DNA of 64,000 nt from a virus (Duplodnaviria; Caudoviricetes). A model generated the notes under the pieces. It was given only the letters and a program-made list of their open reading frames with translations. It ran no database searches and had not been told where the DNA came from. A program made the position numbers and the translations under genes. Where the stretch lies: positions 1-64,000 of IMG/VR virus record IMGVR_UViG_3300033066_001917; one strand, given 5' to 3'. This document shows, one piece after another, positions 4,461-4,635 of the stretch (position 1 is the stretch's first letter; each line of letters opens with the position of its first letter).

Positions 4461-4635
4461 TACCTGGGTGACCCTTAGACATTCTGTCCAACTCCCGGAA
4501 GAGTTTGCCCGGTGAAGGGCTTGGGTTCCCTAATGGGTAGTTTCCGAAGGGACCGAACTACCCCTTGCTTCCGAACCACACAGCTTCCGCTGCCCTTGTG
4601 GAGTTCAGGTTTCCCCGAACTAGAAACCGGAAGCA
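4461..4635 (-). ncRNA. multi-junction structured RNA between tRNA-Phe and the mini-tRNA
   Basis: TGCTTCCG/CGGAAGCA closing stem, GAAA and GGAA tetraloop hairpins, GGGTAGTT/AACTACCC, terminal four-way junction. Confidence 0.6.

Follow-up and report, generated by a model that had tools for sequence, protein, structure and literature searches.

The tRNA array of an uncultivated jumbo phage harbors a 176-nt element that is almost certainly a real, selected, structured noncoding RNA of the minus strand. The element occupies positions 4461-4636 of the window, which is the whole 64,000-nt stretch of DNA that was analyzed, taken from the start of an IMG/VR record of 200,245 bp. CheckV estimated the completeness of this record at ~38%, which at such a length indicates a jumbo phage. 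The phage occurs in wastewater and rivers, and at least 11 studies of these habitats have public runs that contain parts of the stretch. The RNA has ten helices organized in three domains (D1-D3) and is held within a tRNA array on the same strand (1401-4712, minus). We consider its gene to be an undescribed ncRNA gene of a jumbo-phage lineage, whose product would be released by tRNA maturation, and to this full chain, release included, we assign a probability of about 0.5.

The borders of the element are given by its neighbors. The encoded CCA of a tRNA-Phe ends at 4637 and a tRNA-like fold starts at 4460. An earlier note on this DNA had put the RNA at 175 nt (4461-4635), one nucleotide short of the actual length. 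The helices named there were all found on the minus strand at the positions given for them. Domain D1 (4566-4635, minus) is a three-way junction with two hairpins, closed by helix P1 (UGCUUCCGG/UCGGAAGCA, 4635-4627 with 4574-4566). P2 (4621-4614 with 4609-4602) carries a GAAA loop at 4613-4610. The second arm starts with the invariant helix P3 (4601-4598 with 4579-4576), followed by an invariant AAGG bulge (4597-4594) and by P4 (4593-4589 with 4584-4580), which ends in an invariant GGAA loop (4588-4585). Both hairpins had been described as GNRA-capped. This holds for the GGAA loop, which is a conserved GNRA tetraloop, but the GAAA loop is replaced by GAUUA, GAUAA or GAUCAA in relatives. Domain D2 (4535-4563) is a single 8-bp hairpin, P5 (GGGUAGUU/AACUACCC, 4563-4556 with 4542-4535), with a loop of 12-13 nt containing an invariant CCCUUCG; in the window the loop is 13 nt long and contains UCCCUU. 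Domain D3 (4466-4530) is a cloverleaf-shaped four-way junction. Its outermost helix P6 (GGG/CCC) is invariant, and P7 (ACCC/GGGU, 4526-4523 with 4474-4471) closes the junction inside P6. The remaining arms are P8 (4520-4517 with 4510-4507), P9 (4505-4500 with 4495-4490), which has a UNCG loop, and P10 (4489-4485 with 4481-4477). The element ends with a 3' tail AGGUA (4461-4465) that is the same in all versions.

Several unpaired motifs showed no variation, namely the AAGG bulge, the GGAA loop, the CCCUUCG of the D2 loop, the linker UAGGGAACC and the tail CCCAGGUA. Both the AAGG bulge and a downstream AGGGA are possible pairing partners for the CCCUU of the D2 loop. Since every partner is invariant, these pairings give no covariation signal. 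Geometric reasoning suggests that pairing of the D2 loop with the downstream AGGGA as a compact H-type knot looks strained, since a 3-nt linker would have to cross the 8-bp stem.

The minimum free energy of the minus strand was −73.2 kcal/mol (z −3.35), and 1 of 200 shuffled sequences folded as well. On energy alone the plus strand folds nearly equally well. The strand is indicated by G·U pairs, three of which are invariant (P2 22/33, P4 47/60 and P10 152/164); read on the plus strand, these three and several variable ones turn into A·C mismatches. The retention of these pairs identifies the RNA strand as the tRNA strand. The GGAA loop and the UCCG/UUCG (UNCG) loops are also correct only in the minus-strand reading. 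A coding function is ruled out by 1-nt indels between strains, which break every ORF and leave none conserved, in agreement with the earlier note that had seen no credible ORF. A scan for promoters and terminators found none inside the element above shuffle expectation.

Relatives of the element were obtained as assembled contigs, reached via homologues of two proteins encoded near it, an HNH protein and a 101-aa protein (window 4938-5240). Four distinct versions were found in public wastewater and river assemblies, with identities of 77-89%. The first is the window itself. The second, 89% identical, is the L004 type, which also occurs in L005-L007, L019, L022, L030 and L031; the copies in L030 and L031 are identical to the L004 type. 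The third version is that of contig L010 (83% identical) and the fourth that of L011/L012 (77%). Contigs L008 and L009 stop at a tRNA-Leu, short of the element. When folded singly, each of the four versions gave the same ten helices. A covariance model (R1; 174 positions, 54 pairs) scored 197 bits for the window element and 176-201 bits in relatives.

In the structural alignment of the four versions (A5), standard pairs filled 98.6% of the cells. Changes on both sides were seen in 15 of the 54 pairs, a count that comes from only four sequences of one narrow lineage and from an alignment fitted to the model; six slid controls gave 0-1 and none of 500 shuffles reached 15. Compensatory pairs were present in eight of the ten helices: four in P1, one each in P2 and P4, four in P5 and one or two in each of P7, P8, P9 and P10. 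The two other helices, P3 and P6, lack any variation and are neither supported nor contradicted by covariation. In P5, the L004 type has CA/UG in place of UU/AA, and L010 and L011 both have C-G in place of U-A. A G-C pair became A-U in P8 and a C-G pair became U-A in P7, while the fourth pair of P10 is C-G, U-A or A-U depending on the version. An independent MAFFT/RNAalifold run yielded the same helices and 16 compensatory pairs, counting those of the adjacent tRNA-like fold. An 11-bit match considered as a further homologue turned out to be spurious; it had inflated the covariation counts in alignment A4 and was left out of A5. The element is also better conserved than its flanks, with 83% versus 75% identity in L010 and 77% versus 71% in L011. 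The fold proposed from a single sequence thus exceeds chance and covaries across four distinct versions.

ARAGORN called 36 tRNA genes on the 200-kb record, which also carries a tmRNA and a tRNA whose anticodon is CUA. The array that holds the element is interrupted on the opposite strand by an HNH homing-endonuclease gene (3341-4057, plus; 238 aa, motif LDHINGV...NLRLLCPNCH). The HNH protein has thousands of homologues, and copies with 95%, 83% and 77% identity mark related strains. In a more distant relative (L002, 51% identical) the array has left no trace. Homologues of both flanking genes (window 1207-1386 and 4935-5240) are kept there and lie ~320 nt apart without any tRNA, so that window 1387-4934 corresponds to L002 2902-3221. 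The absence of the array between retained flanking genes characterizes it as an accessory island. Since the whole array is missing, L002 also has no homologue of the 176-nt RNA. Several genes of the array are remodelled tRNA-like genes. Two of these lie downstream of the element at approximately 4208-4330 and 4121-4206 (within window 4114-4398, minus), and both are syntenic and recognizably conserved at L012 5740-5990 (L011/L012 type) and L010 1960-2240. This synteny suggests that the block comprising the element, the adjacent tRNA-like fold and the two tRNA-like genes, up to tRNA-Leu, moves as a unit.

Directly 3' of the element, with a 0-nt gap in all four versions, follows a tRNA-like fold that lacks an anticodon arm, which we refer to as the mini-tRNA (4393-4460, minus, including a trailing invariant ACCCCC). 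The fold itself comprises 62 nt (4460-4399) and consists of a 9-bp acceptor stem, a 6-bp D stem and a 4-bp T stem with a UUCAAAU loop. Covariation in L010 and L011 supports the acceptor and D stems, and all versions lack the anticodon arm. The acceptor and T helix of ~13 layers is kept as either 9/4 or 8/5. The junction CCCAGGUA-UG is invariant, as is the trailing ACCCCC. According to RNAalifold, the GGU of the element's tail pairs with the ACC following the mini-tRNA; this pairing is without covariation, both sides being invariant. The tRNA-Sec model (RF01852) scored the fold at 33.4 bits, short of its cut-off of 47, and neither the anticodon arm nor the variable arm is present in any version. 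Assignment as tRNA-Sec was rejected on account of this score and the two missing arms, although the 9/4 helix and 6-bp D stem are present. A scan of the 200-kb record for acceptor-plus-T-arm folds found the mini-tRNA as the only such 60-nt element.

The 5' neighbor of the element is more variable. In the window and in L004 it is tRNA-Phe(GAA) (4637-4712, minus), which encodes its CCA and was recognized by ARAGORN and by Rfam with 52.4 bits; the element begins at the next base. Contigs L019 (4031-4106) and L022 (1193-1268) have a near-identical tRNA in which a single G34-to-U change creates a UAA anticodon. In L010 the neighbor is a disrupted tRNA remnant of ~190 nt that folds no better than shuffles, and in L011/L012 a 397-nt insert separates the tRNA from the element. 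This insert (L012 5077-5476, equivalent to L011 7293-7690) itself reaches −159 kcal/mol, far more stable than shuffled sequences (z −3.26), and it may be another structured RNA or the carrier of a 69-aa minus-strand ORF. The L012 copy of the tRNA has a shortened anticodon region and is not called by ARAGORN. Exact bracketing by two tRNA folds, as claimed in the earlier note, is therefore a property of the window and the L004-type strains and does not extend to L010, with its broken tRNA, or to L011/L012, with the insert. The combination of a variable upstream side with a constant mini-tRNA indicates that the element is selected independently of the upstream tRNA and is tied to the mini-tRNA.

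On this arrangement we base a proposed route of expression and release. The element would be co-transcribed with the minus-strand tRNAs of the array, and the tRNA-maturation enzymes of the host would produce both of its ends. Cleavage during maturation of the upstream tRNA, at its 3' CCA end, would free the 5' end of the element. At the 3' end, RNase P would recognize the 13-layer acceptor/T helix of the mini-tRNA and cut between 4461 and 4460, in parallel with the way in which mascRNA delimits MALAT1 at its 3' end. Such release by the enzymes that process tRNAs is plausible. For the 5' end, tRNA punctuation cannot apply everywhere, because an intact tRNA end is lacking on this side in L010 and L011/L012. 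The single hint of expression comes from contigs of one wastewater RNA library, which cover 4086-4559 and bridge the 4460/4461 junction but may stem from DNA carry-over; since such contigs end for assembly reasons, they report neither transcript ends nor RNA levels, and uncovered parts carry no evidential weight.

The main competing explanation is that the element and the mini-tRNA stay together as one RNA of ~240 nt. RNase P would then not cut at the junction, and the mini-tRNA would remain permanently attached as a 3' module, serving either to protect the end or to attract factors that bind tRNAs. The 0-nt gap and strict co-occurrence in four of four versions are consistent with such a fusion, as are the invariant CCCAGGUA-UG junction and ACCCCC, the GGU/ACC pairing that could lengthen the acceptor helix, and the RNA-library contig that crosses the junction. 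In T4 RNA C (139 nt), a 45-nt 5' extension also seems to precede a 9/4 acceptor/T-arm module located in the 3' 93 nt, a weak similarity of 17.5 bits. Two properties of bacterial RNase P likewise count against cleavage. The enzyme prefers a U before the cut, and the base preceding the proposed site is an A; furthermore, leader-trailer pairing, as could be formed here by GGU and ACC, tends to hinder it. On the other side, the GGU/ACC pairing is without covariation, and the mini-tRNA has the continuous 13-layer acceptor/T helix and the 3' ACC that RNase P uses. Comparable modules are in fact cleaved: mascRNA is one, and the tRNA-like module of Mycobacterium smegmatis YrlA is cut by RNase P and then receives CCA (PMC4201824). 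Together with the helix and ACC of the mini-tRNA, these precedents favor cleavage. We regard the uncut RNA as a possibility to be taken seriously, and cleavage by RNase P at 4461/4460 as somewhat more likely than permanent fusion.

An alternative in which the RNA acts only in cis is unlikely. The element would then be a spacer whose fold aids the folding, spacing or ordered processing of the adjacent tRNAs and which is degraded once excised. Its position in a polycistronic tRNA array without a promoter or terminator of its own would fit this role, as would the fact that no partner or target was found. Ten helices and ~40 invariant unpaired bases go far beyond what a spacer needs, however, and other tRNA pairs in the same genome are separated by just 3-10 nt. 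The element has moreover been conserved despite the decayed tRNA in L010 and despite the 397-nt insert in L011/L012.

Searches with known RNA families did not reveal a match. None of the 4227 models of Rfam 15 hit positions 4461-4636 at the gathering threshold, and at E values up to 10 the sole overlap was rli36, with 16.6 bits against a cut-off of 50. Among the relatives, L010, L012 and L019 gave only tRNA matches to Rfam. The absence of any described family agrees with a new RNA. The description in the earlier note as a discrete ncRNA stands in so far as the RNA is selected, non-coding, structured and located on the tRNA strand, as shown by covariation and by the lack of an Rfam family, an ORF and an internal promoter or terminator. 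Exact and degenerate DNA patterns derived from D1 and from D2-D3 gave no hits in IMG/VR, in JGI metagenome contigs or in 185,579 prokaryote genomes, the last of which yielded neither a prophage copy nor a host. A search of IMG/VR for related loci via two window proteins returned no close relatives, and no second copy was found in the 200-kb record by blastn or with model R1. The element thus represents a narrowly distributed, previously undescribed structured-RNA family of the kind formed by small RNAs embedded in phage tRNA clusters.

The multi-junction architecture with its invariant junction and loop bases would also fit a new class of small ribozymes or ligand-binding RNAs, for example one that excises itself from the array. 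We judge this improbable, since no self-cleaving ribozyme or riboswitch model of Rfam 15 matched at E values up to 10, no ORF that could be regulated lies downstream, and the ends are already explained by tRNA-processing enzymes. That the stretch consists of decayed tRNA genes or neutral filler that folds well by chance would accord with the cloverleaf shape of D3, the tRNA-like arm spacings of 2 nt and 1 nt, the remodelled tRNA-like genes of the array and the nearly equal folding energies of the two strands, but is highly improbable given 15 compensatory pairs with 98.6% pairing at 77-89% identity, conservation above that of the flanks and the lack of any tRNA-model match inside 4461-4636 at E values up to 10. 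Derivation of D3 from a tRNA is possible and would concern its ancestry, not present neutrality. Classification of the element as a remodelled tRNA (RF00005) was rejected, as the D3 loops are 6, 4 and 3-5 nt long without a UUCRA T-loop and there is no match to the tRNA clan.

The closest analogues of the element are RNAs C and D of phage T4 (species 1 and 2, encoded by rnaC and rnaD), with which it shares its genomic logic without homology. These RNAs of 139 and 119 nt are non-coding and, like the element, lie inside a tRNA array on the tRNA strand. They are separated from their neighbors by 1 and 6 nt, compared to the element that begins at the base after the tRNA-Phe CCA. The layout with a homing-endonuclease gene within the array is also the same, the T4 counterpart of the HNH gene being segB. 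The T4 RNAs are transcribed in the tRNA cluster and their roles are unknown (PMC3014915). With filters off, model R1 reached no more than 3.9 bits (E 1.3) anywhere in T4 region 68000-76000, and neither rnaC nor rnaD was hit. The element has a different and larger fold of ten helices with two multi-way junctions, and it is known from sequence, whereas the T4 RNAs are stable species by experiment. When the 3' 93 nt of rnaC (NC_000866 contig L025, 2910-3002, minus) was compared with the tRNA-Sec model, a weak match of 17.5 bits (E 0.76) was seen, with a 9-bp acceptor stem, a 4-bp T stem and a UUCGAAU loop; this tentatively gives the 3' part of rnaC the same 9/4 geometry as the mini-tRNA.

Other systems share part of this organization. 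The GOLLD (RF01998) and ROOL (RF03087) RNAs are ornate, covarying phage and prophage RNAs of unknown role that are often adjacent or linked to tRNAs (PMC12286853). They have the tRNA-island habitat in common with the element but measure 580 to more than 800 nt compared to 176 nt, and neither model matched the element at the gathering threshold or at E values up to 10. In MALAT1-mascRNA, the MEN-beta modules and mitochondrial tRNA punctuation a tRNA-like fold lies directly 3' of a noncoding RNA, as in the phage. The mascRNA-type layout is reproduced here by an anticodon-arm-less fold with covarying acceptor and D stems, placed 0 nt 3' of the ncRNA in all four versions. The mascRNA model itself matched the mini-tRNA only weakly (16.7 bits). 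As these systems are eukaryotic nuclear or organellar, the likeness concerns the proposed mechanism only and does not imply homology. The YrlA RNAs, which are bacterial and phage Y RNAs, some of them phage-encoded, also combine a tRNA-like module with another structured module (PMC4201824). In YrlA the tRNA-like module is nested in a Ro-binding stem formed from the RNA ends, whereas in the phage RNA it is a terminal 3' appendage. The YrlA model did not match the element, and a Ro60/TROVE gene (PF05731) is absent from the 200-kb record, which is ~38% complete.

As to function, the released RNA might be stable and act in trans, engaging the machinery of translation or of tRNAs. Four of its unpaired invariant stretches (AAGG bulge, GGAA loop, CCCUUCG loop and UAGGGAACC) could either form tertiary contacts or provide a surface that binds a protein or RNA of this machinery. 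Of the candidate partners considered, Ro60, a CCA-adding enzyme and RtcB, none is encoded in the available 200 kb of the ~38% complete record. The heavy investment of the phage in tRNAs, a tmRNA and an RNA ligase may provide the setting for such a role. More speculatively, the 176-nt body with its obligatory 13-layer, anticodon-less tail could define a new class of phage effector RNA that acts as a mimic or decoy of the tRNA machinery, a jumbo-phage counterpart of T4 RNAs C and D. The tail would then dock on RNase P, the CCA-adding enzyme, a tRNA-targeting defense toxin or the ribosome, and the body would carry the activity. We see this mimic or decoy role as a long shot worth stating.

Structured RNAs of unknown role recur in phage tRNA islands, and the element adds a compact, 176-nt example to them. 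T4 RNAs C and D have been without explanation for 50 years, while GOLLD and ROOL were recently reported to form RNA cages. For the present RNA, the ten-helix fold is well supported, the strand is clear, the borders are defined, and a tRNA-like partner is obligatory. Together with the small size, this makes it easy to synthesize, to probe, to cut with RNase P and to use as bait. If the mini-tRNA serves as a cut signal or as a docking handle, it would reveal a way in which phages exploit tRNA maturation for RNAs other than tRNAs and would make it easier to annotate the many odd tRNA genes of jumbo phages. Immediate impact is limited by the narrow distribution and the absence of a functional clue.

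Some further features of the phage genome concern tRNAs and RNA metabolism. The tRNA with a CUA anticodon, labelled Pyl by ARAGORN, lies outside the window at genome positions 94376-94449 (minus). It is possibly an amber suppressor and hints at TAG recoding in part of the phage genome. Eight elements on the minus strand were not called by ARAGORN but have a perfect 7-bp acceptor stem and a T-arm (genome 131686-131761, 131769-131837, 143499-143569, 144063-144187, 153444-153522, 167224-167309, 167323-167406 and 176598-176680); one of these measures 125 nt. Such elements may represent further non-canonical tRNAs or tRNA-like RNAs, encoded in other arrays of the phage. A 617-aa ORF (window 37639-39492, plus) has a C-terminal ThyX domain and a LAGLIDADG-like stretch mid-protein at residues 302-345, possibly due to insertion of an intein or endonuclease in thymidylate synthase. 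Finally, the window encodes the tmRNA (39905-40278, plus; tag ANDNDVPAFAAAA) and a T4 Rnl1-type RNA ligase (58228-59442, minus), which represent an investment of the phage in translation rescue and RNA repair.
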